Assembly: GCA_963785725.1 (NCBI GenBank) | Contig: CAWAWS010000019.1 | Span: 64,001 to 128,000 of the forward strand | Length of the DNA: 64,000 nucleotides | Direction: 5' to 3' | Origin: an uncultured delta proteobacterium | GTDB lineage: Bacteria; Myxococcota_A; Polyangia; Palsa-1104 | Part shown: piece by piece, positions 2,672 to 54,763 of the stretch | Position numbering within the stretch: the first letter of the stretch is position 1 | Layout: the number at the start of each line of letters is the position of its first letter | Notes under the pieces: generated by a model | Told to the model about the DNA's origin: nothing | Databases searched by the model: none | What the model saw: the letters and a program-made list of their open reading frames with translations, nothing else | Position numbers and translations under genes: made by a program

Positions 2672-5600
2672 TTAGAACGACAGACGGACGCCGAATCGCA
2701 TCGACAGCGGCGCCTGGTACGACGTCGCGCGACCGTAGTTCGGGTTGAGCGTCACCGCGTTGCCGCTGACCGTCTTCAGGTTCACGAGGTCGGCAATCGT
2801 GCCGCCGATGATCGGGCGAACCGCCGAGGTCGTGTACTGCTCGTCGACCGTGGCAACCGCCTGCTCGTTGAACAAGTTGAAGACGTCCGCGTAGGCCTCG
2901 AAGGTGAAGATCTTCGAGATCTGGCGGCGATACTGCGCATGCAGGTCGAACTGCGTGGTGAAGGGCGTACGACCGCCCGAGCCACGCGGCAGGACGTAGG
3001 TCTCGTCCGGGCCGTAGAAGGCGTGGCTGCCGAGGACCTCGATCGGGCTACCCGACAAGCCGTTGAACGCGAGACCGAGGACGACCGTGTTGTCGCCGAA
3101 CGGAATGAAGTACGAGCCCTGGACCTTGATGTTGTGCGGATGGTCGTTCGGCAGCGGACCATTGCGGTTGATGAGCAGCTCGCGCAAGTCGTACTGCGTC
3201 GAGATGTTCGGGTCGAGCTGGCCGTTCGAGGCCTGGAACAAGCCCGGGTAGTTACCGACCGTGCGCGAGTACGTGTACGACGCCAACAGCAGGAAGTTGT
3301 GCGAGAGGCGCTTCTGGGCCGTGAGGACCATGGCGTCGTAGTTACGAACCGGCTTCGGGAAGCCCGAGCCGACGTTCTTGTACTCGGCGAGCTGCTGCTG
3401 AAGGTTGGCGCGCGGGCAGCCCGGGCCACCGATGCTGCTGCAGGTCGACGGATCCGGCGCCGTGGCGCTGATCTTGTTCTCGAGCTTCTTGACTTCGCCT
3501 TCGTCGACGCCGCTGCCGGGGTTGGCAACGAGGTACGTGTTACCGCCGTCCGGCGAGACGTCCTCGATGATGCGGCCGAGGTCGCGATGGATGTACGTCG
3601 CGCCGAGGACCATGTCGAGACCCACGTCGTACTGCACGCCGGCGACGACTTCTTCCGAGAACTGGCCCTTCAGGTCGGGAGCCACGATGCCGTTGGTGCC
3701 GCCCGAGATGCGGTTGTTGGTGACCATCGGCTGCGGGCAGCTCGCCGGGTTGAGGCGCGCGCCCTGGACGAAGCCGGCGCAGGTGTTGCCGAGCGAGTAG
3801 TTGGCGATGAGGCCTTCCTGGCCGAACTCGCGGTCGTTGATGTCGAGCGGGATCGACTCGTAGAAGCGGCCGTAGCTGGCGAAGATCTTCGACCGGCCCT
3901 TACGCGTCCAGTCGTAGACGACGCCGACGCGCGGCGCCCAGTTGTCGTAGATGCCGATGAACGTCTTGCCCGTCGAGTCCTGCGCCTGCTGACCTTCCCA
4001 GCGGACGCCGGCGTTGACCGTCAAGCCGGGGACGAAGCCGACGTTGTACGAATCGCGGAGGTAGGCGCCGTAGTTGAGCGTGCTCGTCGTCGGGGCGAGG
4101 CCGCCCGGCAACAGCATACCGGGGCCGTTGTCGCCGTTCGCGTTAATCTTGTGCGCGTACTCGCGGTAGATCTCCGGGTCCGGATCGTCGGGCGTGATGG
4201 TGTAAAGCGGACCGCCCGAGTAACCACGCTGGTCCTTGTAGATGTTGTCTTCGAAGTCGGCGCCGATCTTCAACGCGTGCGTACCACCGAGGCGCGCGAA
4301 GTAGGTGGCCGAGGCCGCCGCCGAGACGCGCTGGTTGGTCGTGTGATTGATGTAGCCGTAGCCGTTGTCCTGGTAGTTGAGGACCGGGCAGGGGTTGAAG
4401 TTCGGCGTCGCCGGGTTGATCGCGCAAGGCGTGACGCTCGGCTCGAAGTAGGCGAGCGGCTCGGTGACCTGGTAGATGACGGCCGAGTTCTGACCCGCCG
4501 GCGGCGTCGTCGTGCGCGCGTCTTCATAGTGGTAACCGACGAGGACGTCGACCTGGAGGCGGCGATCGAGGAGCTTCGACACGAAGTGGATCTGCGCGTC
4601 GTGCGTGTTGTCGAACACGTGCGCGAGCGCGGCCGCCGCCGAGCCGTTCAACGTGCCGAGGAGGCCGTCGGTCGTCGCCGGGCTGCCGATGTACTGGATG
4701 CTCAAGCTGTTGTTGGCGTTGAGCTGGAAGTTGAACTTCGCGATCCAGTTGTAGAGGCGCTTGTCGTACGAGTAGTGCGTGTCGTACGCGCTGCCGAGGT
4801 TCTGCATGTTGTAGCCCGGCGACGTGCAGAGGCGCTTGTCGAGGTACTCCGGGCACGTGATCGGCGCGAGGTCACCGCCGTACGGGGTGGTCGAGCCGGC
4901 CGGCATGTCGGCGTCGGTGCGCTCGCGGAGCGAACGAACCGTGTCGTAGCTGGTGAAGGTCGGCGCGAAACCAACGTAGAACCAGACCTTGTCCTTGACG
5001 ATCGGGCCACCCAAGTCGAAGCCGAAGTCGAGGCCGTACTTCTCTTTCGTGCGGCTGTAGATGGCTTCGCCCGAGCGACCGACGATCTTCGGCTCGAGCT
5101 GGAACGGCGTGGCGTACAGCCACAAACCGCCGTGGAACTGGTTCGAGCCCGACTTCGTGATGACGTTGACGACGCCGCCCGTGGCGCGGCCGTACTCGGC
5201 GTTGTAACCGCCGGTGATGAGCTCCGTCTCGCCGACGAACTCGAGGGTCAGCTGCGTACCGACGAGGCCGAAGGCCGGGTTGGTCGAGTTGACGCCGTCG
5301 ATGAGGTAGTTGTTCTCGGGACCGGTCGCGCCCGAGAAGCTGATGCTGGCGCCCTTGCCGATGCCGGCTTCGCCGGTACCCTGGGCGGCGCCCGGCGCCA
5401 TCGCCATGATCGCGTCGTACGTACGACCCTGAACCGGCGTGTTGCGGATCAGCTCGCTCGTGACCGTCGTCTGCTGCTGCGTGTTGCCGACGTCGACGGT
5501 CGGCGCCTTCTCGACGATGCGGTAGGTCTTGACCTCCGCCTTCTGCGTCGGGAACGTGATGTTGACCGGCAGCGTCTTATCGGACTGCAGGAAGATGCCG

Positions 5601-5896
5601 GGGCGCTCGACGTTGATGTCCGAGAAGTAGAAGCGAACGAGGTACTCGCCGGGGGGCAGCTCGGTGATGATGTAGTGGCCGCCCGCGTCGGTGAACTCCG
5701 TCTGCTCGCCCTGCAGTGCCGGCGAGGTGACGGTGACGGTGACGCCGGCGAGCTTCTTGCCGGTCGCTTGATCGGTGACGACGCCCTCGATGTTACCGGT
5801 TACGTCGGCGTGCGCGGTCGCGGGGATGAGCAGAACCCCCAAGAGCGCGGGCAACGCCCAGGCGAGCAGGCGGGTCTTCAGAATGGAGGCTTTCAT
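2672..5896 (-). CDS. Oar-like TonB-dependent outer membrane receptor with N-terminal carboxypeptidase-regulatory-like domain
   Basis: Signal peptide, plug motif GGYNAEYGRATGGVVNVITKSGSN, C-terminal RFGVRLSF; ATGA overlap with the upstream gene. Confidence 0.9.
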   Translation of the reverse strand: MKASILKTRLLAWALPALLGVLLIPATAHADVTGNIEGVVTDQATGKKLAGVTVTVTSPALQGEQTEFTDAGGHYIITELPPGEYLVRFYFSDINVERPGIFLQSDKTLPVNITFPTQKAEVKTYRIVEKAPTVDVGNTQQQTTVTSELIRNTPVQGRTYDAIMAMAPGAAQGTGEAGIGKGASISFSGATGPENNYLIDGVNSTNPAFGLVGTQLTLEFVGETELITGGYNAEYGRATGGVVNVITKSGSNQFHGGLWLYATPFQLEPKIVGRSGEAIYSRTKEKYGLDFGFDLGGPIVKDKVWFYVGFAPTFTSYDTVRSLRERTDADMPAGSTTPYGGDLAPITCPEYLDKRLCTSPGYNMQNLGSAYDTHYSYDKRLYNWIAKFNFQLNANNSLSIQYIGSPATTDGLLGTLNGSAAAALAHVFDNTHDAQIHFVSKLLDRRLQVDVLVGYHYEDARTTTPPAGQNSAVIYQVTEPLAYFEPSVTPCAINPATPNFNPCPVLNYQDNGYGYINHTTNQRVSAAASATYFARLGGTHALKIGADFEDNIYKDQRGYSGGPLYTITPDDPDPEIYREYAHKINANGDNGPGMLLPGGLAPTTSTLNYGAYLRDSYNVGFVPGLTVNAGVRWEGQQAQDSTGKTFIGIYDNWAPRVGVVYDWTRKGRSKIFASYGRFYESIPLDINDREFGQEGLIANYSLGNTCAGFVQGARLNPASCPQPMVTNNRISGGTNGIVAPDLKGQFSEEVVAGVQYDVGLDMVLGATYIHRDLGRIIEDVSPDGGNTYLVANPGSGVDEGEVKKLENKISATAPDPSTCSSIGGPGCPRANLQQQLAEYKNVGSGFPKPVRNYDAMVLTAQKRLSHNFLLLASYTYSRTVGNYPGLFQASNGQLDPNISTQYDLRELLINRNGPLPNDHPHNIKVQGSYFIPFGDNTVVLGLAFNGLSGSPIEVLGSHAFYGPDETYVLPRGSGGRTPFTTQFDLHAQYRRQISKIFTFEAYADVFNLFNEQAVATVDEQYTTSAVRPIIGGTIADLVNLKTVSGNAVTLNPNYGRATSYQAPLSMRFGVRLSF

Positions 5897-7080
5897 TTGC
5901 ACTGCTCCGGGGTGACGTGGTTCGCGACCGCGATCGGATCCATCGTCGGGTCGGTCGTGTCAGAACCAGCGACCGTGAAGACGATCGGGTCCGAGGTGAA
6001 GACCGGACCAGCGCCGCCCAAACCCTTGGCGTTGATCACGATCGAGTAATCGCCGGCCGGCCAATCGGCCGGCACGCGCGTAGCGCCAGTGCCCGAGGTG
6101 TAAACGAGGTTGAGCGTGAGCGTATCCTGCGCCGCGGCGCACATCGTCGGATCCGCGCCACGATCGTCGTAGGCTTCGATGGCGGCCGGATTGAAGCCGG
6201 CAGCGGTGCTCGTCGACGACGGATCGATCGTCACCGTCGTCTCGTCCACGGACTCCCAGAAGGGATACTGAACGACGTCGTTCGGCGCGATCGTCGCCAT
6301 GCCCGCGGCCGAGTAGTCGCCGTCGCCGCCGAGGTTCGGCGTCAGATCCTCCGTCGTGAACTTGAAATCGGTCGGGTCGCCGAGGGGCGCGCCGCTGGCG
6401 TCCGTGACCGCCTCACCCTGTTCGCTCTTCAACTGCGAGGTATGCAGGCGAATCGTATAGGTCGTGCTGGGATTCAGCGGACCGAGGGGATTGGTCACGA
6501 TCGCCGGGCCGAACGGGATCCAGATGACGTCCGACGTAAACGTCGACGCGCCCTCGTTGTCCCAAAATCCGGTGATCGGGAAGTTGGTGCCATCCGGATT
6601 GAGGAGCTCGAGGATGCCCGGGTTGAGCGACATCTGCTGGCCCGGGAGCTGGGCGCCGTTCGCGTCGACCTTGATCGTCTCGATGTTGGGATTGAGCTGC
6701 TTATTGAAGACGACGCGAATCGCGGTGTTGTCGCCGTTGAGCTGCACGCCAGTGCTCGGTACCTTGAGCGGGTCGACGCAGAAGCCGTCCGAATGGCAGG
6801 TGAGATCCGGAAAGGTCTGCGCGATCAGGAACTGGGTCACGCACGGATTGTTGACGGCGCAAGCCACCTGAGGGGTGTTGTCGAGCAAGTCGGTGATGGC
6901 GGCGCGCTGCGCCGGCGGACCGCCAACGAAGGCGTAGTCCTGGATGGTCAAGCGCGTAAGCTTAGGACCGCCTTTGGGAGGGGGTGTTTGCCCCAACGTC
7001 AGGTCGGAGCAGCCCGACCCCGCTGTCAGCGACGCCGCCAACAGCGCCATTAGTGGGATGTTTCCGAACTGCGTTCGCAT
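5893..7080 (-). CDS. Lipoprotein with probable Ig-like domains, co-transcribed with the TonB receptor
   Basis: Lipobox AGSGC; IRVVFNKQLNP...LNPSTTYTIRL...FKFTT resembles a bacterial Ig-like fold; AAGGAG SD. Confidence 0.8.
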   Translation of the reverse strand: MRTQFGNIPLMALLAASLTAGSGCSDLTLGQTPPPKGGPKLTRLTIQDYAFVGGPPAQRAAITDLLDNTPQVACAVNNPCVTQFLIAQTFPDLTCHSDGFCVDPLKVPSTGVQLNGDNTAIRVVFNKQLNPNIETIKVDANGAQLPGQQMSLNPGILELLNPDGTNFPITGFWDNEGASTFTSDVIWIPFGPAIVTNPLGPLNPSTTYTIRLHTSQLKSEQGEAVTDASGAPLGDPTDFKFTTEDLTPNLGGDGDYSAAGMATIAPNDVVQYPFWESVDETTVTIDPSSTSTAAGFNPAAIEAYDDRGADPTMCAAAQDTLTLNLVYTSGTGATRVPADWPAGDYSIVINAKGLGGAGPVFTSDPIVFTVAGSDTTDPTMDPIAVANHVTPEQCK

Positions 7081-7174: not shown

Positions 7175-7190
7175 CGCACTCGCCATTCCA
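7175..7190 (-). promoter_or_regulatory. Candidate sigma-54 promoter for the lipoprotein-TonB receptor operon
   Basis: Minus strand TGGAATGGCGAGTGCG has GG-N10-GC spacing; inverted repeat at 7241-7267 and an A-tract lie upstream. Confidence 0.4.
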
Positions 7191-7295: not shown

Positions 7296-8315
7296 TCAGG
7301 CGCACGGCCATCCTACTGGCGATGCGCCGGTCGTCAACAACTTCTCGCCATGACCGTAATGACAAAAGCGTGTGCCGCACCGCATCGGATCCGGCGTGCA
7401 TAGCTCGTAGACATACGCCGTCCCGTCGCTGTTGCAGGTGAAAGGCACCCCCGGCGGCGGCACGTCGAGCGGGCAATCGTAGCCGCGACAAAACTGGCAG
7501 CCGCCGCCGTCGCAGGTGTTGTCGACCGTGGCGAGCACAGTGTCGGGATAGTCGTAGAGGCCCCAAAAGCTCGCACAGGCATAGTTCTGCAGCTCTTGTT
7601 GCGTCACTGCATCGCTGCTCAACGTCATCGTTACAGCGGTGCTCAAAGGCAGCTCCGCTGCCGGAGTTACCGTCGCTGTGGGAAAGCACAAGTCGGTGAA
7701 GTGACCGACCGAGTCGAAGTGGCCGCAGTCGAAGAAGCTGGGCGCCTTCAGCGTCGGGCGCTGCACGAGACTGAAGCCGGTCGTCGACGGGAAAAGGTCG
7801 AGATAGAGGCTGGGATCGGCCGGATGGCCCGCGGCGAGGAAGAAGAGATCTACATTTGTAATCGCGCCCAACACGCGATCGGGGGAGTTTTCATTGGTGC
7901 TCGGGACGAGGTCGAGCTGACCATTCCCGTTATTGTCGGCGAACGCGAGAATCGTCCCTAATGCGTAACGGGTCGACGGATCGAGCCCGCTCGCCGGAAC
8001 CGCGCCGTTCAATGGCGCCACCGAATGAATGGCCGGCGCCGGCGGCAGCGCATTGAGACCGAGCGTAAATGTCGTCAGATCCTTATCGAGGACGCCGAGC
8101 TGGCCGGCATAGCTGCTGGCGCCGTCGCGATCGTTTTGCCACAAGACCACGATGCTGACCGGCGTCGTCGTGGGATTGGGTGTCGAATAGGCGACGTTGC
8201 CGTCGAGCGTGACGTACGGCGGCGCATAATCTCCCGTCGCCAGCGGATCGCCGCAGCCGGCCACGAACAGGCCGGCGACAGTGACCGCTAAGGGCTGCGG
8301 AAAGAGCTGCTTCAT
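7296..8315 (-). CDS. Hypothetical Cys-rich lipoprotein
   Basis: Lipobox FVAGC, DNNGNGQLD Ca-binding-like loop, Cys-rich C terminus; start at MKQLF (8315) just below an ECF-type promoter. Confidence 0.75.
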   Translation of the reverse strand: MKQLFPQPLAVTVAGLFVAGCGDPLATGDYAPPYVTLDGNVAYSTPNPTTTPVSIVVLWQNDRDGASSYAGQLGVLDKDLTTFTLGLNALPPAPAIHSVAPLNGAVPASGLDPSTRYALGTILAFADNNGNGQLDLVPSTNENSPDRVLGAITNVDLFFLAAGHPADPSLYLDLFPSTTGFSLVQRPTLKAPSFFDCGHFDSVGHFTDLCFPTATVTPAAELPLSTAVTMTLSSDAVTQQELQNYACASFWGLYDYPDTVLATVDNTCDGGGCQFCRGYDCPLDVPPPGVPFTCNSDGTAYVYELCTPDPMRCGTRFCHYGHGEKLLTTGASPVGWPCA

Positions 8316-8329
8316 CTTTGTCGGCACAC

Positions 8330-8358
8330 TAGACACCATGTCGCGAAAAAGGCGGCAA
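8330..8358 (-). promoter_or_regulatory. Candidate ECF sigma promoter (copy 2)
   Basis: TTGCCG-N16-GTGTCTA; same layout as the motif upstream of the ECF sigma gene. Confidence 0.65.
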
Positions 8359-8367
8359 TCGTTTTTT

Positions 8368-10015
8368 TCAGAAATAGACCCCTAATCCCAGCCCCGTTTG
8401 ATAGGTGGCCGCGGTCGTGGTGGACTGTTTGTTTCCGTCAGTGGTTCGCATGAAATAAGTCAGCCCAGCCACTTCCAGTCGCACATACAAACGGTGTGGG
8501 AGCGGCACTTCGAGCTGCCCGACGACACCCGCGAACGGCGCTGGCGCGCTGCGGCTCGGCGTCGCGGCCATGATCGTCGACGGTGGGTCGTGAAAGGCTT
8601 GCAGGAACGCGGCGACGCCGACCTCGAGCCCGGCGTCGAGCGTGACCGGTCCGAGGTCGAACGCGCGAATGGCATCGACGGCGGCGGAGAGCTCGCGCGT
8701 GTCGATGGTCCAGCGCGTGTTTTGCCGCGTGGAGCTCGAGAAACCGAGGCGAAACTCGAGCGAAATCTGCCGTAAATCGACGCGCGCGCCGAGCTCGGTG
8801 CGCCACGCGGTGCCGAGGCCGGCGATGTCGCCGCGCGCGCCGCCGTCGGCGAACAGCGAGCCCGAGAGGCGGCGCTCGGTGCCGCCTTTGCGGACGACGC
8901 GCGCATAGTCGATTCGCGCCATTACTTTCGGCTCTACTAAGGTGACCTTCTGCGCGCTGACGTCGAAGCGGCCCTGCTCGAGATAGTCGATGTCGCGGCG
9001 CGTAACGAAGTAGCGGCCGGCGTCGAGCGCGATGCGCGCGCCGCCATCGCTGGCGGCGATCTCGGCGACGACCGGGCCGTCGGTGCTGCTCTTGTGGACG
9101 CTATAGACGCCCGCTCGCGCGAACGCCAGCGTGCCGACGTCGCGATGCTCGGCGCCGGGGCGCGTCAGAATCGAATCTTCGCGACCGCCGAGGTCGAGGC
9201 GAAACGTCGGGTGCTGCGGGCCGGCCAGCGTGCGCGACGTCGTGGCCAGCGTGCGCTCTTTGGCGTAGGCGAAGGCTTCGCCGAGCGTCACGGCGCCGTC
9301 ACGATTGGTGTCGCCGGCGCCGAGCAGCGCCGAGACCAACGCGTGCGTGAAGAACGAAGCGCCGAGCGCGTCCGATTCCTGCGAGCTCTCACCGGCGGCG
9401 CTCGACGACAGCATGGCCACGCCGGTGGCGCCGATGGGAAACGACAGATCGATGTCGAAGGCGGCGGCGGGCGTGCCGCCTTTGACGCGCGTCATCGCGC
9501 CCGAGCGGCAGGCGTCGAGCGCGAGCACGCGCGCCGTCGCCGACGAGCCGGTGACGAGGTCGCGCAGCTCGTCGATGCCGAGGTGGGAGCCGTCGAGGTG
9601 CAGCGCGCCGGCGTCGGCGTGGCCCGAATAATAGACGAACATGAGCGAATCGCCGCCCAGCTGACGCACGCGCGCGTTGATGGCGATGAGCGCGCGCCGC
9701 ACCTCCGAGGCGCGCAGAATCGACGAGCGAGATGACGTTTTCGGGCTGGAATCCGCCGAGCGTGCGCAGCACGCCGCCGACGCGGGCCGCGTCCGATTCG
9801 GCGTAGTGCAAGACGACCTCATCGGCGTCGCCGTGGTTGTTGCCGATGACGACGGCGAAGCGGTTGGGCTCGGCGCCGGCGTTCGAAGCGACGGCGACGA
9901 CGCCGGCGAGCACGACGAGCAGCGCGAGCCGGCCCGGCCCGCGCCCTCGCCTGGCGGCGCGACGGAGGGCGAGCCACTGCCGAATGCGCGCCCGCGTCGT
10001 CCGCAAACGCGTCAT
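8368..10015 (-). CDS. Exported caspase-family (peptidase C14) protease with C-terminal beta-barrel-like domain; one frameshift near 9715
   Basis: N part (signal peptide, RFAVVIGNN, LHYAESDA) is in ORF 9389..10162; catalytic YSGH and DACRSG are in ORF 8368..9822; ends GLGLGVYF; ATGA overlap with the upstream gene. Confidence 0.85.
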
Positions 10016-10791
10016 GGTCCGCTCGTCTTCTCCATCATCCAATCGCTCTCGGCGCAGCCGGGCAAGTGTAGCTCGCCGGTGCGATGGGGATCGCGCGCCG
10101 CTTCGGTGAGCCGGGCGCGCGCGGCGTCGACGGCGTCGGCCACCGACTGCTCGCGCGGGCACAACAGCGCGACGACGCGCTCGGCGCCGGGCGTGGCGTC
10201 GAGCACGATGCTGCCCGGCATCGGCTGGCGCACGCCGCTCGGCACGTGTAGCCCGCGACCGCCGTCGGCGACATAGACCGAGACTTTGCCGGCGGCATCG
10301 AGGCCGAGCACGACGACGTCGCCCTCTTGGCCCGTCGAGAGCACGAAGCGCACGGCGTCGCCCGGATGCACGACGCCGCCCGGCGCGAGCTCGACGACGC
10401 GCCCATCCGCCTGCCGCGCCACGACCGACAATTCCAGCGGCAGCGCCTGGCCTTTGGTGCGCTCGTGACCGCCGGGCTTACGCCACATCGGCAGCAGCAC
10501 GACGAGCGCCAACATCGCCGCCGCGGCCGCGAACGTCTGCGTCGTGCGCACAATCGTTCGGCGCCACAAGCGCCGGCGCAGCTTACGCGGTCCGTCGGCC
10601 AGCACCAGCGCGGCGCGCACGTTGAGCCGGCGCAGCTCGGCCAGCCGCTGCGTGCACAGCGCGCACGTCGCCAGGTGCGTCTCGACGGTGGCGCGGGTGG
10701 TCGGCGCGCCGGCGACGATCCGGTCGAGCGTCAGATCGGACAGACAGCTGGGCGGACGACGCCGCCTTCCAAAGCTCATCGGCTCGATCAT
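10012..10791 (-). CDS. Putative Zn-binding anti-sigma factor: HxxxCxxC, one TM, periplasmic DUF4384-like domain
   Basis: HLATCALC; TM AAAAAMLALVVLL; VHPGDAVRFV...GSIVLDATPGAERVVALLC; directly downstream of the ECF sigma. Confidence 0.75.
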   Translation of the reverse strand: MIEPMSFGRRRRPPSCLSDLTLDRIVAGAPTTRATVETHLATCALCTQRLAELRRLNVRAALVLADGPRKLRRRLWRRTIVRTTQTFAAAAAMLALVVLLPMWRKPGGHERTKGQALPLELSVVARQADGRVVELAPGGVVHPGDAVRFVLSTGQEGDVVVLGLDAAGKVSVYVADGGRGLHVPSGVRQPMPGSIVLDATPGAERVVALLCPREQSVADAVDAARARLTEAARDPHRTGELHLPGCAESDWMMEKTSGP

Positions 10792-10793
10792 CG

Positions 10794-10924
10794 CGAGCAA
10801 TCTCCTCGGCACAGCCTCGGCGCTGCGGCTCGCTTCACTCCGTTCCGCTCGTCGATTTTCACGAGCAATCTCCTCGGCACAGCCTCGGCGCTGCGGCTCG
10901 CTTCACTCCGTTCCGCTCGTCGAT
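10794..10924. repeat. Two identical 63-bp direct repeats (period 68) encoding coupled mini-ORFs, MIRU-like
   Basis: CGAGCAATCTCCTCGGCACAGCCTCGGCGCTGCGGCTCGCTTCACTCCGTTCCGCTCGTCGAT at 10794-10856 and 10862-10924. Confidence 0.95.
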
Positions 10925-11421
10925 CACCCAAGGACCTCCTCGGGCACGATGTCGAGCTGATCGCGCGCCGTATCGCGAAACTGCTTCAGTCGGTTGCGCA
11001 CCGTGCGCTCGGAGATGCCGAGCAGCTCGGCGATCTCCTCCTGACCCATTTGATCCACGTAGTAATAGATAGCGACCTCGGCCAGCTCGCGCGGAATGAG
11101 GCTCAAGAGCTGCTCGATGCCGATGCGATCTTCCTGCGAGCTCACGCGTTCCGCTTCGGCGAGGGGCATTTTGCGGGCGAGCGCGCGCCGTCGCCGGGCT
11201 CCGTCGCGAATGCTATTGAGGCAATGGTTGGTCGTCACTTGATAGAGCCAGGTCGTGAGCGCCGATTCGCCACGGAAACCCGGGAAGGCCTGGATCGCCT
11301 TCATGAACACCTCCTGCACCATGTCCTGGGCAGCGTGCTCGTCCCCCAAAAGGGTACACGCTCGCCGCAGCACCATGCCGCCGTAGGTTCGATAGAGAAA
11401 GTCTATCGAGGCCTGATCCAT
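10924..11421 (-). CDS. ECF-type RNA polymerase sigma factor
   Basis: Region 2 AQDMVQEVFMKA...TWLYQVTTNHCLN; region 4 QEEIAELLGISERTVRNRL; 165 aa. Confidence 0.92.
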   Translation of the reverse strand: MDQASIDFLYRTYGGMVLRRACTLLGDEHAAQDMVQEVFMKAIQAFPGFRGESALTTWLYQVTTNHCLNSIRDGARRRRALARKMPLAEAERVSSQEDRIGIEQLLSLIPRELAEVAIYYYVDQMGQEEIAELLGISERTVRNRLKQFRDTARDQLDIVPEEVLG

Positions 11422-11434
11422 CCCTCAGACCCTT

Positions 11435-11463
11435 TCGACACCAAGCGCGCAATGGAGCGGCAA
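11435..11463 (-). promoter_or_regulatory. Candidate autoregulatory ECF promoter (copy 1)
   Basis: TTGCCG-N16-GTGTCGA ending 13 nt before the sigma ATG. Confidence 0.65.
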
Positions 11464-11596
11464 CACGATCCGCCCGTAACGATCGGCGTGAACATTCGGC
11501 GAACTTTTCGCCAGCAAACGGCTAATAATGTGACAAAACTGCTGTACTGACCAGTACGACCGCGTTAAGGTTCGCACTGGCCAGAGAGGTTGTCTA

Positions 11597-43809: not shown

Positions 43810-46897
<3,088 letters not shown>

Positions 46898-46936
46898 CTA
46901 TGGTTTAGCATCGAGGTGGGCGCGAGTAAAGGTGAA

Positions 46937-48007
46937 TCAGCTCTTAACAGCACCTGCAACTATTTGAAAGTCAAGGCGTTCTCGGGCGAGCAAGACATGG
47001 CTCGGAGAGGTCGTCGTGATGAACGCCTGACACGGCACCGATTGCAGAAAATCGAACAGCTGCGCATTTCTCGTGGGGTCCAATTCCGACGAAACATCGT
47101 CGAGCAATAAAACCGGAGCGTCCCCCAAAGTCGCGCGCAAGAATTCGATTTCGGCGATTTTCAATGCCAGCACGATCGCGCGCAGCTGGCCTTGCGACGC
47201 GTAGGATTTGGCCTCTTTTCCGTCGAGAAGCAGCGCCAAGTCGTCGACGTGCGGACCGGACGAGGTCGCGCCGCGCGCCATATCGCGGCGGCGCTCGGCC
47301 GATAATCGCGCCAATAACGTCGCCTCGATATCGCCGTCCATTTGCGTCGCGTAGCCAATCGCCAGCGAAAGGCCGGTTTGCGTCACGCGCTCGAACGCCG
47401 CTTGCACGCGCGGCCGCAGCTCGTCGACGAGCGCGCGCCGCCGATTGACGATCGCCACCGCCGCGCGCGCCAGCTGCGCGTCGTAGACTTCGAGCAGATC
47501 GGGCGCGCCGCCGTCACGCAAGACCGCATTGCGCGACTTCAGGACGCGATCATAAATCTGCGCCTCGCCGAGATAGGCCGGATGCGCGTTCCACACGGCG
47601 CGATCGATGAATCGCCGTCGCCCCGAGGGTGAGCCTTTGGGCAGCCGCAGATCCTCGGGCGCAAACAGGACGACGTTGAAGCCGCCGAAGTAATCGGTCG
47701 CGCGCGCGCCTTTGCCGTCGACCCGCGCGCTCTTGTGGCCGGGGCTGAGCGCGACCTCGAGCAGCCGTAGCGTCTCCAGCTTCTCGACCCGCGCGCGCAC
47801 CGTCGCTTTGGGCGCGCCGAAGCGCACCATCTCCTCGGTCTTGGCAGCGCGAAAGCTGCGCAGCGTGCCGAGCAGATAAATCGCCTCCAAGATGTTCGTC
47901 TTGCCCTGCCCGTTATCGCCCCACAGCACGTTGAAGCGCGCGTGCGGCTCGATGAGGACCTGTTCGAGATTGCGGAACTGACGGGCTTCGAGCGCGTGGA
48001 TGCGCAT
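46937..48007 (-). CDS. recF: DNA replication/repair protein RecF
   Basis: GDNGQGKTN, ASQGQ and LLLDDVSSELD; position after dnaN. Confidence 0.97.
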   Translation of the reverse strand: MRIHALEARQFRNLEQVLIEPHARFNVLWGDNGQGKTNILEAIYLLGTLRSFRAAKTEEMVRFGAPKATVRARVEKLETLRLLEVALSPGHKSARVDGKGARATDYFGGFNVVLFAPEDLRLPKGSPSGRRRFIDRAVWNAHPAYLGEAQIYDRVLKSRNAVLRDGGAPDLLEVYDAQLARAAVAIVNRRRALVDELRPRVQAAFERVTQTGLSLAIGYATQMDGDIEATLLARLSAERRRDMARGATSSGPHVDDLALLLDGKEAKSYASQGQLRAIVLALKIAEIEFLRATLGDAPVLLLDDVSSELDPTRNAQLFDFLQSVPCQAFITTTSPSHVLLARERLDFQIVAGAVKS

Positions 48008-48033
48008 CGATTACGCGGGCGAAGGCGACGACT

Positions 48034-49146
48034 TCAGATGCGCATGGGCATGACGACGCCGACGTAGCTGGCGCCTTTGCCCTGCTCGGCCGGCCGCACG
48101 AGCCCGGGATCGAGCTCGCCGTTCAGCTCCAGCTTCACTTCGTCGCCCTCCATCTCGCCCAAGAGCTCGATGAAATACTTGGCGTTGAAGCCGATGGTCA
48201 GGGCCGTGCCGTCGTAGCCGACGTCGAGCGCTTCGTGCGCCTCGCCCAAGTCGGGGTTGTCGCTGGCGACCTTGAGCTCGTTCTTGTCGAGCGAGAACTT
48301 GATGCCCCAGGTCTTGTCCGACGACATGATGCTGATGCGCTTCAAGGCTTCCAAGAGCGCCAGCCGCGGCGCCACGGCGATCTTGTCGTTCTCTTTCGGG
48401 ATGACCTGATCGTACGGCGGAAACTGCGCGTCGATGAGCTTGACCGACAGCGCCGTGTTGCCGGCGCGGACGAACAAGTGGCCGTTGTGGATGCCGAGCT
48501 CGACTTTGCCGTCGGCCGACTCCAGCTGGCGCCGCACTTCCATCAAGCCTTTGCGCGGAATGATGATGCCCGCCGCCAGCTTGGGCCCGTCGGCCAGCGG
48601 CCGCTCCACCTTCGACAGGCGGTGACCATCCGTCGACACCATGCGCGCCACCGCGCCGTCGCTCTCGAAGAGCACGCCGTTCAAGTGGTAGCGCGTCTCG
48701 TCGGTCGAGATGCTGAAGAACGTCTTGGCGATCATGTCGCGCAACGTCGCCGCGTCGACCGTCGAGAACGTGACCTCGCGATGGTTCGGCAGCTTCGGGA
48801 AGTCGCGATCGGCCATGCCGACGACCTTGTAGTCGACCTTGCCGGCGCGAATCTCCGCGTACTGATTCTCCGTCCGCTTGAGCGTCAGCTCGTCCTTGGG
48901 CAGCGACTTGACGATGTCATGCAGATGCTTGGCACCGACGGTGAGCCCGCCTTCCGACGTCACGTGACAGGGCAGCTCGGCGGTGACCGTCACGTTCAGG
49001 TCGGTGGCCGCGACGAGCAGCTTGTCCTTGCCATCGGTGCGCAACAGGACGTTGGCGAGGATGGGCATCGTGCTCTTGCGATCCGAGATTCCCTGCGCCA
49101 GGTAGAGACCCTGAAGCAGCGACGCCTTCTCGATTTTGAACTCCAT
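48034..49146 (-). CDS. dnaN: DNA polymerase III beta clamp
   Basis: STMPILAN, ATDL, STDGHRL, FPPY, IGFN and VVMPMRI. Confidence 0.98.
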   Translation of the reverse strand: MEFKIEKASLLQGLYLAQGISDRKSTMPILANVLLRTDGKDKLLVAATDLNVTVTAELPCHVTSEGGLTVGAKHLHDIVKSLPKDELTLKRTENQYAEIRAGKVDYKVVGMADRDFPKLPNHREVTFSTVDAATLRDMIAKTFFSISTDETRYHLNGVLFESDGAVARMVSTDGHRLSKVERPLADGPKLAAGIIIPRKGLMEVRRQLESADGKVELGIHNGHLFVRAGNTALSVKLIDAQFPPYDQVIPKENDKIAVAPRLALLEALKRISIMSSDKTWGIKFSLDKNELKVASDNPDLGEAHEALDVGYDGTALTIGFNAKYFIELLGEMEGDEVKLELNGELDPGLVRPAEQGKGASYVGVVMPMRI

Positions 49147-49164
49147 CGTTCTGGCTCTCCGTCT

Positions 49165-49370
49165 GAGTAGTTCTTCAGAAGATCAATGAAGATCCGTATC
49201 TCTATTATGTCCTGTGGGAACTTGGATAACCGATCGATCCCCACGACATCTCTCGTGAAACAGCTGTGTGCGAAAAGTGTGTTCTTTTTTGCGAAGTGCC
49301 CGGTTGCACACAGGCGCCACTTACGCACACTCACTCCACAGCGCAATCCCCGGACTTGTACACAACCGGG
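49165..49370. other. oriC candidate, unwinding half (dnaA-dnaN intergenic)
   Basis: Degenerate DnaA boxes at 49213-49221, 49221-49229, 49304-49312, 49321-49329, 49332-49340 and 49356-49364; AT-rich GATC-containing stretch at 49165-49210. Confidence 0.7.
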
Positions 49371-49693
49371 GGCAATCTATCACCACCCCCGGCGCGCGCG
49401 CACACAAAATCAACGACGCGCGCAAGCGTTCTGCCGCGCGCCTGGACGACGTTCGCCGCCCGTTTCGGACGCGAGCACGCGCGGGGGCGATCGTGGCTGA
49501 GAAGGCGGCGCAGGCGCGTCCGGCGAGGTCGGGCGAGAACGTGGGTGAGGTCGGCGCGAGAAGCAACTTTTGTGACTGATTGGCGATAATTGGGGCGGGA
49601 AGGTCGGGGGCATGACGACGAGCCCACCGTCCTCCGGAATCGTTCGACCGAATCCTCTGGAATCGATCGTTCTTACGAACCGATCGTCGTCGC

Positions 49694-51103
49694 CTACTGC
49701 GACAGATGCCGCTCGAGCTCTTCGACCGTATGCCGCGTCTTCGGGTCACTCTGCACGAGCGCGTCGATCTTCCGGCACGCCGACAGCACCGTCGTGTGAT
49801 CCTTGCCGCCAAAGCGCTGCCCCAAGTCGGGATACGACGACTTGCACAGCTTGCGCGCCAGATACATCGCGATCTGCCGCGGTCGCGCGATGGCCTGATG
49901 CCGCTTGGGCGACTTCAAGTCCGCCAGCTTGACGTTGAAGTAGTTCGCCACTTCCTTCTGCACCGCCTCGACGGTCAGCGAATGCGCCGCCTGGGTCAGG
50001 AAGTTCTTCAGCGTCTCCTTGGCGAACTCGATCGTGATCGGCTGCGACTGCAAGCCCGCGAACGCCGCCACACGAATCAGCAGACCTTCGAGCTCGCGCA
50101 CGTTCGACTTGATGTTCGTCGCCAGGTAAATCGCGACGTCGTCGGGCAGATCGATGCCGTCGTTGTCCGCCTTCTTCTTCAGAATGGCGATGCGCGTCTC
50201 CAGCTCCGGCGGCTGAATGTCGGCGATCAATCCCGACTGAAAGCGCGAACGCAGCCGCTCTTCGAGATCGGGAATCTCGTGCGGATACTTGTCCGCGGTC
50301 AGCACGATCTGCCGATGCGACTCGAACAGCGAGTTGAACGTGTGGAAGAACTCGTCCTGCGTGCGGTCCTTGCCGGCCAGGAACTGAATGTCGTCCATCA
50401 ACAGCACGTCGCATTTCTCGCGGTATTTACGACGGAATTCGTCGATCTTACCGTTGCGGATGCAGTTGATGTACTCGTTCATGAACGTCTCGGTCTTGAG
50501 GTACAAGATCCGCCACGTCGGGTTCTTCTCGCGGATGCGATGGCCGATCGCGTGCACCAAGTGCGTTTTGCCGAGACCGACGCCGCCATATAAGAAGAGC
50601 GGGTTGTACTTGTGCGCAGGAATCTCGGCCACGGCGCGCGACGCCGCGTGCGCCAGCTGATTCGACGGGCCGACGACGTAGGCATCGAACGTGTACTTCG
50701 ACAGCAGGTCCGGCGACGGCGAATCCCCACGCGATTCGCGGGCTTCACCCGTGCGAATGTCGATCGGCCCCGAGCGCGGCGCGTCGGTCATCGGCACCGG
50801 CGTCGGGTCGACGCGCGGATGCGGCTCGGCCTCGCGGACCTCGAACAGAATCTCGTAGTCCTGATTGTTCTGCGCCTTGAGCGCGTCCAGGACGATCGAC
50901 TGGTAGTTGTCCTGAAACCACTCTTTGATCCACTTAGAAGGTGCGCTCAACGTGATGGTCGCGCCTTCGACGGCTTTGCACTGAATCGGTTTCAGCCACA
51001 TCTCGAAGTTGTGCGGCTTGATGCGCCCTTCGAGCGTGCTGAGCGCGCTTTCCCACAGGCCTGTCATCGCAGTCGACTCTCTCGCCTGTTCGTCTTCGGA
51101 CAT
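49694..51103 (-). CDS. dnaA: Chromosomal replication initiator DnaA (alternative start 51067)
   Basis: YNPLFLYGGVGLGKTHL, DDIQF, FFHTFN, SNVRELEG and GGKDHTTV. Confidence 0.98.
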   Translation of the reverse strand: MSEDEQARESTAMTGLWESALSTLEGRIKPHNFEMWLKPIQCKAVEGATITLSAPSKWIKEWFQDNYQSIVLDALKAQNNQDYEILFEVREAEPHPRVDPTPVPMTDAPRSGPIDIRTGEARESRGDSPSPDLLSKYTFDAYVVGPSNQLAHAASRAVAEIPAHKYNPLFLYGGVGLGKTHLVHAIGHRIREKNPTWRILYLKTETFMNEYINCIRNGKIDEFRRKYREKCDVLLMDDIQFLAGKDRTQDEFFHTFNSLFESHRQIVLTADKYPHEIPDLEERLRSRFQSGLIADIQPPELETRIAILKKKADNDGIDLPDDVAIYLATNIKSNVRELEGLLIRVAAFAGLQSQPITIEFAKETLKNFLTQAAHSLTVEAVQKEVANYFNVKLADLKSPKRHQAIARPRQIAMYLARKLCKSSYPDLGQRFGGKDHTTVLSACRKIDALVQSDPKTRHTVEELERHLSQ

Positions 51104-51107
51104 GAAA

Positions 51108-51138
51108 TTACCCACAGCCCTATCCACAATGTGGATAA
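51108..51138. promoter_or_regulatory. Cluster of three DnaA boxes upstream of dnaA
   Basis: TTACCCACA 51108-51116, CTATCCACA 51120-51128 and perfect TGTGGATAA 51130-51138. Confidence 0.88.
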
Positions 51139-51694
51139 GTCGGAATTTCGTTCTGGTTTCGGTGTGAGGCTGAAACGGTTTACTTAACGAATACGCTGAT
51201 GTGTGATCAGCTAGCGGCCAACTGCGGGATCCTGTCGTCGATGCGTTTTTGCGCTCTGCAGGTACCCACGGTTTGCCTCCCCGGCGTGAAGCGACTCGAA
51301 CGTTTATCAAGCAGGTTTTTGGTTGGCAATCCCCAAAAACCGAGGCGTTTCGATCTGCTGCTGATCCTTGAGAAAAATTTGAGGACAGCGGCCGGCCAAA
51401 ACGGGAAAAACGGCGTCGCGGCGGCCGCCATACATGCAAACGGTAGGTAACCTCAGCGGAATTCGGTCGCTCTCCACAGCCGTGCGCGCTGAGTCCCGTC
51501 CGGCGCGGGTTTGCCGGATCGCGTTCGAGCAAAACCGCCTGATCGCCTCGATTGCGACCGATCTGCGTGCTTCGTGTAACGGATTAGCGGCGGAACAGAG
51601 GGTTCGCGAAGCTGGAATCCAGCGTTGCGTCGCGTTAAAGTCTCGGCAGCTTTGGCGGGTGTGACGACGGAAGTGATCGCCCTTCCAAGCGATC

Positions 51695-51723
51695 TTGACA
51701 CGCGCGGAGGTGGTTGCTATAGC
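51695..51723 (+). promoter_or_regulatory. Sigma-70 promoter of the rpmH operon
   Basis: TTGACA-N17-TATAGC with a TG extension. Confidence 0.65.
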
Positions 51724-51755
51724 TCCGCGGCCATTCTTTTACTAGGAGACGGACC

Positions 51756-51905
51756 GTGAAGCGCACTTACCAACCCCATAACAAGCGCCGCAAGCGCTCC
51801 CACGGCTTCCGCAAGCGGATGAGCTCCAAAGGCGGCCGCTTGACCCTCCAGCGTCGTCGTCGCAAGGGTCGCCGCAAGTTGACGGTCACCGTCGCCAAGA
51901 AGTAA
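51756..51905 (+). CDS. rpmH: 50S ribosomal protein L34
   Basis: Translated by hand: [56 protein letters not shown]; below the ORF-track size cutoff. Confidence 0.97.
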
Positions 51906-51908
51906 CGA

Positions 51909-52259
51909 CTGACGCTCGAAAGCTTCCCGAAAAGCGAGCGGCTTCGCCGGCGCAGCGAGTATCTGCGAGTTCAGCAGACGGGACGCAAGCTCCACACCGA
52001 TAGCTTTCTCGTGTTCGTGTTGACGCAGGGTGAAGCCGGTCCACCGCGACTGGGCATCACAGCTTCGCGCAAGCTCGGTGGCGCGGTCGTGCGTAACCGA
52101 GTAAAACGTCGTGTGCGGGAAGCATTCAGGCGACATAAGTTGTTGTTCCCGAGCGGGATCGATCTCGTGTTCGTGGCCAAAAAGAGCGCGAGCGACACCG
52201 AATACGATCAGGTGGTGCGGGAAATGGAGAAGCTGTGCCGAAAGCATTTTCCGCGTTAG
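51909..52259 (+). CDS. rnpA: RNase P protein component (probable CTG start)
   Basis: [13 protein letters not shown] upstream of the track start, RLGITASRK and [13 protein letters not shown]. Confidence 0.9.
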
Positions 52260-52498
52260 CTGCGGCATTGCTGCTGGCTCTGCTCGCCGTGTATCGACGG
52301 CTGCTCTCGCCCATATTCGCGCTCTTTGGGGCGCGCTGCCGATTTTACCCCACGTGCTCCGCTTATGCGTCCGAGGCCGTCCGTCATTACGGGCCATGGC
52401 GCGGCGGTTGGATGGCGATCCGTCGTCTCGGTCGCTGCCACCCGTTCCACCCCGGCGGGTACGATCCGCCCGTTCCAACGGATTCGATTCATGGATAA
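52235..52498 (+). CDS. yidD: Membrane protein insertion efficiency factor
   Basis: [10 protein letters not shown] and [12 protein letters not shown]. Confidence 0.95.
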
Positions 52499-54302
52499 AC
52501 GTGTCCTGATTGCCTCGACCATTTCGATGGGAATGGTCGCGGTCTGGTTGGTCGTGTTCAAACCGCACGCGGCCAACGTCGCGCCGCCGGTCGCCGGTGT
52601 GCTCGAGAAGTCGGCAACCGCGACCGAGCCGCCGGCCAAAGCCGCGACGCCGGCGCCGGTCGGCGACGGCAAAGCCGCGGCCGCGAAGGTCGATGCCGCC
52701 AAGCCTGCCGACGCGAAGGCTGCCGACGGCAAGGCCGCCGACGCCGCGCCGCCGACGCCGCCCGCAAAGGCGGAATACAAAGAGACGACGCTGGAAGTGC
52801 CGGGTTACTACCGCGCGACGTTCAACAACTACGGCGCGGCGGCGAATCATTGGGTGCTGCTGAATCCCCAATATAAGGAGGACAACCCGCGCAAGAGCAA
52901 CAAGATGTCGGAGCCGATCGACCTCGTGAAGACGTCGGCGCCGACTCTGCCGCTCGCGTTGAGCTTCGGCAAAGCGGCGACCGCATCCTTCGATGTTCCC
53001 GAGGACGCGGTGTGGACCGAGGAGCCGCGCGGCAACGACGGCGCGGTCGTCTACAGCTGGACCTCGGGCGACGTTCGCATCGAGAAGCGCTACACGCCGG
53101 TTCCCGATTCGTACGAGGTGCGGCTCACCGTCACGGTTGCGAACAAGGGCGACAAGCCGCTCGAATACTATCCGCGTTTGTCGATTTCCGGCTGGCACGA
53201 TCCGTCCGTGAAGTCGGGCGGCTTCCTCTCGCGTCGCGTGAGCCAGACCGAGGGGCTTTGCCTCGTCGACGGCAAGCTGAAGAAAGCCAACCTCGAGGCG
53301 ATGCTCAAGAAGTCCGAGGGCGGCGCGAATTGGGGCAAAGGAATCGACGAGTGGACCAAACCCGGCGAGCCGGGCAAGGTCCGCTGGATTGGCGTCGGTG
53401 AGCAGTACTTCGTGATGGCGGCGGCGCTCAAGCTCGACAATCAAGGTCGTCGCTGCGAAGGCTTCGGCACCTCCGGCGGCAACATCACGTCGTCGATGAC
53501 GATCGACAAGCAGGTCCTCGCCAAGCAGGCACAGGCCACGTACCAGTGGTCGCTGTTCATGGGGCCGAAGATCTTGTCGCGGCTGGACGCGGTCACCGTT
53601 GGTGGCGAAGACGCCGAGATGGGCAAGGCGGTCGACTACGGCTGGACCGAGGCGGTCGCGCGGCCGATGCTGGGCGTGCTCAAAGGCATCCACGCGCTCG
53701 TCCCCAACTGGGGCTTCGCGATCATCATCCTGACGATTCTGCTGAAGGCGCTGACCTGGTATCCGACGCAGCGCTCGATGAAGTCCATGAAGTCGATGGC
53801 GAAGCTCAAGCCGGAGATGGACAAGCTCAAAGAGCGCTACGGCGACGACAAGAACGGCATGAACGTCGCCATGATGGAGCTCTACAAGAAGCACGGCGTG
53901 AATCCGCTCGGCGGCTGCTTGCCGGTGCTCATCCAGATGCCGATCTACATCGCGCTGTACTCGATGTTGGGCAACTCGGTGGAGCTCTATCGCTCGGGAT
54001 TCTTGGGCTGGATCAAGGACTTGACGGCGGCGGATCCCTATTATGTGCTGCCGGTTTTGACGGGCGCGCTCATGTTCCTGCAGCAGAAGACGCAGCCGGC
54101 GTCGCCCGATCCGCAGCAGCGGACGATGATGTACATCATGCCGGTCATGTTCACGGCGTTCAGTATCTTCTTGCCGTCGGGCTTGACGATTTACATTCTC
54201 ACCAATACGGTCCTGACGTTCGTGCAGCAATTCTTGATGAACCGCGGCGATAAGCCGTCGCAGCCGAGCAAGCCGGCGATGACCAAACCGGCGAGGGCCT
54301 GA
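52491..54302 (+). CDS. yidC: Membrane protein insertase YidC
   Basis: [27 protein letters not shown] and DPYYVLP. Confidence 0.96.
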
Positions 54303-54763
54303 TGGAAGAAGCAGCCAACGTCCTAGGCGAGATCCTCAAAAAGATGGGGATCGAGCACGAAATCGTGACCACCGAGAACGAAGAGCGGATCACCCTCGAG
54401 GTCAAAGGTCCGGAGACCGGCCTCGTCATCGGCAAGAAGGGGCAGACGCTCGATTCGCTGCAGTACATGGTCAACAAGATCGTGTCCAAGCGGCATGGTG
54501 AAGGCGAAGGCAAAGGCGTGACCGTCGACGCCGAAGGCTATCGCAGCCGCCGCGCCGACGCGCTCGTCGAGCTCGCGCACAAGCTGGCCGAGAAGGCCAA
54601 GCGCACGGGACGGCCGGTCGCGGCCGATCCGATGAGCGCCGCCGATCGCCGCATCATCCACGTCACTTTGGCCGACATGGCCGGGTTGACGACACGCTCG
54701 GAAGGCGAAGGCATCTACCGCCACCTGATCGTGATCCCGACCGGCAGCGGTGGCGGCGAGTAG
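54302..54763 (+). CDS. jag: KH-R3H RNA-binding protein Jag/KhpB, lacking the Jag N-terminal domain
   Basis: IGKKGQTLDSLQY, RRIIH and SEGEG. Confidence 0.9.
   Translation: MEEAANVLGEILKKMGIEHEIVTTENEERITLEVKGPETGLVIGKKGQTLDSLQYMVNKIVSKRHGEGEGKGVTVDAEGYRSRRADALVELAHKLAEKAKRTGRPVAADPMSAADRRIIHVTLADMAGLTTRSEGEGIYRHLIVIPTGSGGGE

Follow-up and report, generated by a model that had tools for sequence, protein, structure and literature searches.

A predicted outer-membrane caspase and a transmembrane anti-sigma factor of Myxococcota share a candidate cleavage tag

Regulated intramembrane proteolysis in the RseA-DegS-RseP system is the general comparison for the subject of this report: four neighbouring genes, for a sigma factor of extracytoplasmic function (ECF), an anti-sigma factor, an exported caspase-like protease and a Cys-rich lipoprotein, in 64,000 nucleotides of DNA (hereafter the window) from an uncultured delta proteobacterium of the Myxococcota_A (GenBank assembly GCA_963785725.1, contig CAWAWS010000019.1, positions 64,001 to 128,000). 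The module is real, widespread, partly catalogued and mechanistically undescribed, and is probably a variant of regulated anti-sigma proteolysis. From the comparison of sequences we consider it likely that the separate, envelope-anchored caspase makes the site-1 cut in the anti-sigma factor of its module, releasing itself and then cutting a tag beside the membrane before RseP acts; the sequences offer a candidate cut site common to the protease and the anti-sigma factor.

The DdvS/DdvA pair of Myxococcus xanthus likewise combines an ECF sigma factor, a zinc-binding transmembrane (TM) anti-sigma factor and a periplasmic caspase-fold domain, with a cut proposed for the linker beside the TM segment and RseP as the site-2 protease, which cuts trimmed DdvA in that organism (PMC11506125; this and the other publications cited are used in excerpt, and statements about them hold for the excerpts). 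DdvA differs in having a TPR-CHAT domain of its own, proposed to cut itself in trans, whereas in our module the C14 enzyme is a protein of its own, carried on a predicted outer-membrane barrel, and the anti-sigma factor has a small DUF4384 domain. It differs also in that no genes of clustered regularly interspaced short palindromic repeat (CRISPR) systems or of cyclic-oligonucleotide-based antiphage signalling (CBASS) were found among the open reading frames (ORFs) scanned and the repeats examined in the window: the 20 largest of 32 direct-repeat families contained no CRISPR array, 46 further ORFs (chosen from those of at least 250 amino acids) had no cas domain, and neither type III cas genes nor a cyclic oligoadenylate (cOA) sensor domain occurred in this material, as the first-pass annotation of the stretch had stated in seeing no CRISPR link. 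In the type III-E system Csx29/Csx30/RpoE, too, the target of a caspase-like protease is a linker within a sigma-binding protein, with Lys427 at the cut site, and one group of Csx30 C-terminal domains is DUF4384, the domain type also of our anti-sigma factor; that protease differs in being cytoplasmic, of the CHAT family and triggered by CRISPR RNA (bioRxiv 2022.08.17.504292). The SAVED-CHAT/PCaspase/PCc-sigma/PCi system of Haliangium shares with the module a myxobacterial C14 caspase that lies beside a sigma factor and is activated by cleavage, and differs in that PCaspase is described as a cOA-triggered, broad-spectrum intracellular death effector and PCi as CI-2-like, and thus not as a TM anti-sigma factor, for which reason we rejected PCi as a counterpart of the module anti-sigma factor (bioRxiv 2023.06.23.546230). 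EACC2 caspase systems also adjoin ECF sigma factors (PMC8195603). The two-step logic of RseA-DegS-RseP, a periplasmic site-1 cut followed by RseP (scheme per PMC11506125), is the one that we propose here; the site-1 enzyme of the module would be a cysteine protease of caspase fold that shares an operon with its target and comes free of the outer membrane, rather than an inner-membrane serine protease.

In M. xanthus, four of the five metacaspases lie in sigma-70 operons (Asplund-Samuelsson et al. 2012, PMC3501461). Table S2 of that work gives an ECF sigma factor, the TM protein MXAN_4950, a metacaspase and a lipoprotein, likewise a set with MXAN_6682, and an ECF sigma factor together with MXAN_7215 or MXAN_7455 and a metacaspase; it has entries, too, for Anaeromyxobacter, Haliangium, Sorangium, Ralstonia pickettii and Fibrobacter. 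The gene order of these DK1622 operons is that of the window module, and by this order and by the named Myxococcus, Pyxidicoccus and Archangium loci in our survey they probably belong to the same family. The excerpts of PMC3501461 discuss cell death; in them the middle gene is not called an anti-sigma factor and no barrel or cut site is noted. The earlier remark that no characterised mechanism is known thus stands insofar as none was found in print, whereas the operon layout had already been published as a gene neighbourhood. A literature search found no account of the barrel, the anti-sigma factor or the tag of the module, with most subscription journals outside the search and an unseen description therefore possible. 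A supposed link of the module to the act operon found no support in the one search made for it, and the passages on RpoE1 gave no locus tag or link to the module.

The operon of ECF sigma factor, HxxxCxxC-TM protein, ATGA-coupled C14 protease and Cys-rich lipoprotein that had been read from the bare sequence was confirmed by Pfam matches and by motifs (YSGH and DACRSG, a C-terminal Phe, the lipobox VAGC). All four genes are on the minus strand, and the TGA of the anti-sigma gene overlaps the ATG of the protease gene. The features, in window coordinates, are as follows.

10924..11421, minus strand: ECF sigma factor, 165 amino acids (Pfam Sigma70_r2 and r4_2; TIGR02937)
10784..10919, no strand assigned: a dispersed repeat of 68 nt, present twice in tandem between the sigma and anti-sigma genes, outside the module proper
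10012..10791, minus strand: predicted anti-sigma factor, 259 amino acids, with HxxxCxxC, one TM segment, a linker and a periplasmic Ig-like DUF4384 domain
10654-10677, minus strand: zinc-binding HxxxCxxC of the anti-sigma factor (HLATCALC)
about 10486-10536, minus strand: TM segment of the anti-sigma factor
10450..10461, minus strand: R-T-K-G tag of the anti-sigma factor just outside the TM segment (Lys codon 10453-10455), candidate site-1 cut
8368..10015, minus strand: exported C14 (metacaspase/orthocaspase-type) protease (Pfam C14, model of the intact orthologue of genome G003, Foldseek)
9619-9621 and 9508-9510, minus strand: codons of the catalytic His and Cys of the protease
9478..9489, minus strand: protease tag 1, R-V-K-G (Lys codon 9481-9483), nine residues past the catalytic Cys, candidate activating self-cut
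8884..8895, minus strand: protease tag 2, V-R-K-G (Lys codon 8887-8889), between beta-sandwich and barrel, candidate cut releasing the enzyme from its membrane anchor
about 8371-8868, minus strand: predicted 8-stranded barrel of the protease
7296..8339, minus strand: Cys-rich lipoprotein (13 Cys; lipobox VAGC, with the codon of the lipid-anchored Cys at 8253-8255; translation likely starts at 8315)

A scan of GTDB with the protease gave 376 relatives, and the best 80, which include named Archangium, Pyxidicoccus, Myxococcus and Anaeromyxobacter records, were kept for a survey of loci. The anti-sigma gene adjoined the protease gene in 68/80 loci, and anti-sigma and sigma genes together in 62/80; neither partner was present in 11, three of them cut off upstream. 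Of 336 anti-sigma matches, 60 were taken for their long contigs among the 150 matches listed, and in these the sigma gene adjoined in 60/60 and the protease gene was present in 58/60. Because the partner is held in 68/80 protease loci and 58/60 anti-sigma loci, the linkage is beyond chance, and the module is widespread in Myxococcota: among 301 genomes of the phylum, with an anti-sigma threshold of E 1e-14 or better, 113 had both genes, two the anti-sigma gene only, three the protease gene only and 183 neither, a distribution to be read as a pattern rather than as a statistical test, kin not being independent. At E 1e-8 the genomes with the anti-sigma gene only rose to 33, mostly through matches to the zinc finger of other anti-sigma factors. 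The surmise that similar clusters exist in other myxobacteria is thereby borne out. The anti-sigma profile matched 2,470 clusters (50% identity) at an E of 1e-30 or better.

The central observation is a short tag that recurs at three places. In anti-sigma factors encoded next to a protease, K-G occurs at a variable 2-30 residues past the TM segment in 65/65 full-length proteins (three fragments left out), with an Arg two residues before the Lys in 57, whereas K-G near the TM segment arises in 7% of shuffled sequences. Among cluster representatives it lies within 40 residues of the TM segment in 149/149; the 150th, an anti-sigma-like protein of 758 amino acids (P0052) with five tandem DUF4384-like domains, has no K-G tag and was excluded, and because this protein lacks the tag, the DUF4384 fold does not require it. 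In 120 distinct pairs the tag residue of the anti-sigma factor is Lys in 116 and Arg in four, followed by Gly in 115, and the residue nine past the catalytic Cys of the protease (Cys+9) is Lys in 119 and Arg in one, followed by Gly in 120/120; both Lys and Gly are present at this site in 80/80 of the best protease relatives. The tag 2 site of the protease is basic in 105/106 aligned sequences, 14 of the 120 being unaligned. As controls, R-x-[KR]-G was found in 0/11 other zinc-finger proteins of the source genome (plain K-G in two) and in 0/27 loci that gave weak hits and had no protease gene alongside (plain K-G in four).

The tag residue usually changes with the lineage of the protease. A sister clade is present in 60/401 genomes, and in the 31 loci examined the Cys+9 residue of the protease is Arg in 31/31 and the tag residue of the anti-sigma factor is Arg in 22/23 assignable loci (six loci had no anti-sigma match and two were not assignable). 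On a quick tree this Arg clade was separate with full support, and locus L176 was an Arg/Arg pair inside the Lys clade; the Arg/Arg label of the tree includes L288, L289 and L291, whose anti-sigma residue is Lys or unassigned. A DxDxDG loop is present in 68/122 Lys-clade and 19/25 Arg-clade proteases. A third lineage occurs in 40/301 genomes, and all of the 25 loci examined have sigma and anti-sigma matches; a search in 150 genomes of one class had found none, whereas the phylum-wide search did. In this lineage [KR]-G follows the lipobox Cys in 16/16 lipoprotein-type proteases with the N terminus shown, and therefore the tag stands where an anchor must be shed.

The window protease has a signal-peptide-like N terminus ending in AGA, the motifs YSGH and DACRSG and a C-terminal Phe, and matches Peptidase_C14 at E 4.5e-7. 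For folding and alignment the intact G003 orthologue was used, which is 73% identical over the C-terminal part. Its model (mean predicted local distance difference test, pLDDT, 78) shows, besides a signal helix and the caspase domain, a beta-sandwich, a linker of poor order with a low-pLDDT segment at residues 348-358, and eight C-terminal strands over residues 361-516. In Foldseek the barrel matched NspA (target-normalised template modelling score 0.73, rmsd, the root-mean-square deviation, 4.1), OmpA and OmpX, and the enzyme matched caspase-7, Yca1 and MALT1. The outer-membrane barrel suggested by the first-pass annotation is thus predicted, and for export, likewise suggested there, the alignment of orthologues gives an indication in its AxA signal-peptidase motif. 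The last residue is Phe or Trp in 60/120 proteases, some truncated or differently anchored proteins included. Barrels of eight strands have no pore and keep their N terminus in the periplasm, and because of this the catalytic domain of the modelled protease is expected on the periplasmic side.

The His-Cys dyad and three acidic S1 residues (Asp, Asp and Glu) are invariant in 80/80 proteases. Alignment places the two Asp at the N-D and D-S-C positions of plant Metacaspase-4, where we take them to have an S1 role, as we take the Glu to have its equivalent in MALT1. Because of this alignment the sequence points to an acidic S1 pocket of the metacaspase type and to specificity for Arg/Lys, the residues after which metacaspase-type enzymes cleave (PMC8283722).

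As assembled, the window protease gene carries a surplus base near 9717-9718 that splits it, a point hinted at by the first-pass annotation. The base is missing from four congeneric genomes and from the covering contigs in 4/4 soil runs (strains 1-5% diverged, other than the source sample), and 13 of 109 conserved genes of the assembly are frameshifted against the congener G004 (171 ORFs were tried, of which 109 passed the filter for identity and coverage). For these reasons an assembly error is most likely, with a private pseudogene as the less likely alternative. Further single extra bases against covering run contigs stand at 7186, 11578-11579 and 11596 of the window, consistent with indel errors of the assembly.

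The anti-sigma factor has, by its sequence, the make-up of a ZAS-type TM anti-sigma factor, with an HxxxCxxC domain, one TM segment and a gene adjoining that of the ECF sigma factor. The window copy reaches DUF4384 only at E 0.03; among 54 orthologues DUF4384 and zf-HC2 are each matched in 30. In the AlphaFold model of an orthologue (mean pLDDT 87) the zinc domain is helical and is followed by a TM helix, an unfolded linker and, from about residue 113, an Ig-like sandwich; the tag lies in a low-pLDDT segment (residues 109-113) outside the folded domain. Fold comparison of the sandwich gave a best Z of 9.5 (rmsd 2.2 over 94 residues); Csx30 was not among the listed fold matches, which bears on kinship neither way. 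The periplasmic part, of about 150 amino acids, is DUF4384/Ig-like and holds no TPR-CHAT domain of the DdvA type, and its two Cys are invariant in 54/54. Close anti-sigma relatives are labelled Polyangia or Myxococcales. The window sigma factor matches Sigma70_r2 at E 4e-17 and r4_2 at E 4e-10. Of two candidate groups for it, ECF216, found only in Myxococcales, has anti-sigma factors with a zinc finger and TM segment, and ECF25 anti-sigma factors may carry DUF4384 (PMC7826278 supplement). Word counting upstream of 122 sigma genes gave no clear -35/-10 promoter pair, and among the sequencing runs listed there was none of RNA.

From these observations we infer the following order of steps and every cleavage in it. 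At rest, the anti-sigma factor would hold the sigma factor at the inner membrane, as family knowledge suggests, and the protease would sit as a zymogen on its predicted 8-stranded outer-membrane barrel. On some envelope signal, which either the lipoprotein or Ca2+ bound at the DxDxDG loop might relay, the enzyme would cleave itself between Lys and Gly after the catalytic Cys and again between Lys and Gly ahead of the barrel. Release would be needed, a tethered protease presumably being too far from an anti-sigma site that stands a few residues off the inner membrane. Once freed, the enzyme would go on to cut the same R-x-K-G tag, after its Lys, beside the TM segment of the anti-sigma factor; with the bulky DUF4384 domain lost, RseP may cut the stub and the sigma factor would be released. 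The source genome (G000) has two RseP-family genes (TIGR00054 over cut-off). A complex prediction of protease residues 24-345 with the periplasmic part of the anti-sigma factor (G003, 54-row alignments) scored 0.00, which bears neither way.

Other readings of the same data were considered. Some other trypsin-like protease, from a phage, prey, predator or host, might cut the shared tag and thereby activate the caspase, perhaps trimming the anti-sigma factor as well, with the caspase as amplifier or effector. An identical tag at three places would suit any single cutter, a cutter from outside would account for the first activation of a zymogen, and the Haliangium PCaspase is indeed activated by a second protease (bioRxiv 2023.06.23.546230). 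Yet Lys or Arg at the tag usually tracks the clade of the protease, two clades can coexist in one genome (for example G080, G089 and G155), and the S1 pocket of the enzyme itself is acidic and invariant; we therefore regard an outside cutter as unlikely. Only slightly less credible is that the tag is a docking or pseudo-substrate motif, with which the anti-sigma factor and loops of the protease itself plug the active site and keep the enzyme off, while the sigma factor is freed by another route. An invariant basic residue suits binding in S1 whether cut or uncut, and the frequent fusion of DUF4384 to caspase-like proteases (PMC8283722 Table 1; bioRxiv 2022.08.17.504292) hints at a regulatory contact; on the other hand, cut sites typically have a small P1' residue and lie, as these three do, where domains or anchors join, the third lineage has the tag shifted to a place beside the lipid anchor, and an enzyme tethered to the outer membrane and unreleased would hardly reach a site 2-30 residues from the inner membrane.

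That the protease is a mere output of the sigma regulon, such as an exported maturase or killing effector, with structural or coincidental tags, seems very improbable to us. Operons often combine a regulator with its targets, and bacterial caspases are mostly tied to defence and death, but this reading leaves unexplained the tag in the anti-sigma factor, its absence from control anti-sigma factors, its position outside the fold and the switch between Lys and Arg. Against our preferred reading, in which the caspase cuts its own anti-sigma factor, a number of points must also be set. The support for anti-sigma cleavage and sigma release is comparative in kind, and the protease gene of the window itself is frameshifted as assembled. 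The tag residues are mismatched in four pairs (L154, L181 and L313, with an Arg anti-sigma factor and a Lys protease, and L288, the reverse), tag 2 is Arg in 23 Lys-clade proteases, the switch between Lys and Arg clades amounts to one event plus one more on the quick tree, and the association at P3 is weak (Fisher p 0.012, with kin not independent). Low pLDDT at the protease tags may stem from the 13-sequence alignment rather than from disorder, and the hidden Markov models (HMMs) used for collecting anti-sigma factors include the tag, a slight bias in the counts. Two loci with tag-bearing anti-sigma factors (L160 and L172) have no protease within the 3-5 kb fetched. Three orphan anti-sigma factors have lost K-G while a nearby Arg is kept, which makes the orphan test only partly favourable; two of the three genomes concerned hold a third-lineage protease.

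The lipoprotein is the fourth member of the module, of an unnamed family tied to it. An HMM built from 43 downstream lipoproteins found the window lipoprotein at E 3e-30 and matched in 83/140 loci (52 downstream and 31 upstream), overturning a single-sequence search that had suggested lack of conservation (5/80). The window lipoprotein has no Pfam or NCBIfam match, and its Atlas neighbours are unnamed clusters, mostly from Myxococcota. In 11 loci (L137, L140, L149, L152, L163, L168, L174, L179, L181, L182 and L185) the protease is followed by lipoproteins of another family, distinct from this one.

Other arrangements of the genes were also seen. The source genome has a second sigma/anti-sigma/protease locus on contig C38, where the protease is divergent from the sigma and anti-sigma genes (L001:4744-7490), and a third, lone protease on C14 (L002:828-2240). 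In both of these proteases a C-terminal hydrophobic helix replaces the barrel and the tags are kept, and large repeat-rich lipoproteins are encoded downstream. At the start of G000:C38 (L001:30-1500) a 5' fragment of the C14 protease gene abuts an ORF resembling a piece of a retrotransposon protease/reverse transcriptase (by eye), probably a chimeric contig end, and L001:9817-13770 holds an RHS/YD-repeat protein next to a small ORF, an arrangement that by eye is typical of toxin-immunity pairs in competition between bacteria. In L173 (G245:C4) two proteases of the family stand in tandem after a single sigma/anti-sigma pair. In the genus labelled g15 the sigma and anti-sigma genes are away from the protease gene and the tag is kept; an intact protease and its lipoprotein lie elsewhere in 5/5 genomes.

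The 68-nt repeat between the sigma and anti-sigma genes has eight matches in the genome, mostly in tandem arrays, and against Rfam only a chance snoRNA match (25.6 bits, cut-off 120); in congeners the two genes abut. After the module, window positions 2672-7080 (minus strand) encode a second, Big_5-like lipoprotein and a TonB-dependent-type outer-membrane protein of 1076 amino acids, which are possible members of the regulon. A homologue of the Big_5-like lipoprotein lies downstream of the module in three congeners, and a paralogous pair of both genes on G000:C3 has a 46-codon remnant of the module lipoprotein upstream. Positions 44384-56096 (gyrB, recF, dnaN, dnaA, yidC and trmE) place a replication-origin region within the window.

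Bacterial homologues of caspases are mostly discussed as enzymes of death and defence, few of them with a known substrate; for this module a candidate substrate and residue can be named. The role of the M. xanthus metacaspases, long open, becomes testable by point mutants in a genetically tractable host. We give about even weight to a wider view, in which such modules are caspase-gated trans-envelope switches throughout the phylum, the R-x-K/R-G tag programmes the three cuts, and periplasmic caspases are dedicated signalling proteases with several paralogous channels per cell, possibly the envelope counterpart or the source of the type III-E CRISPR modules of caspase, anti-sigma and sigma factor. 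If the proposed mechanism is true, it might provide a protease-gated switch for synthetic biology, and with a caspase-type site-1 protease that leaves an outer-membrane barrel, signals would cross the envelope in a new manner.

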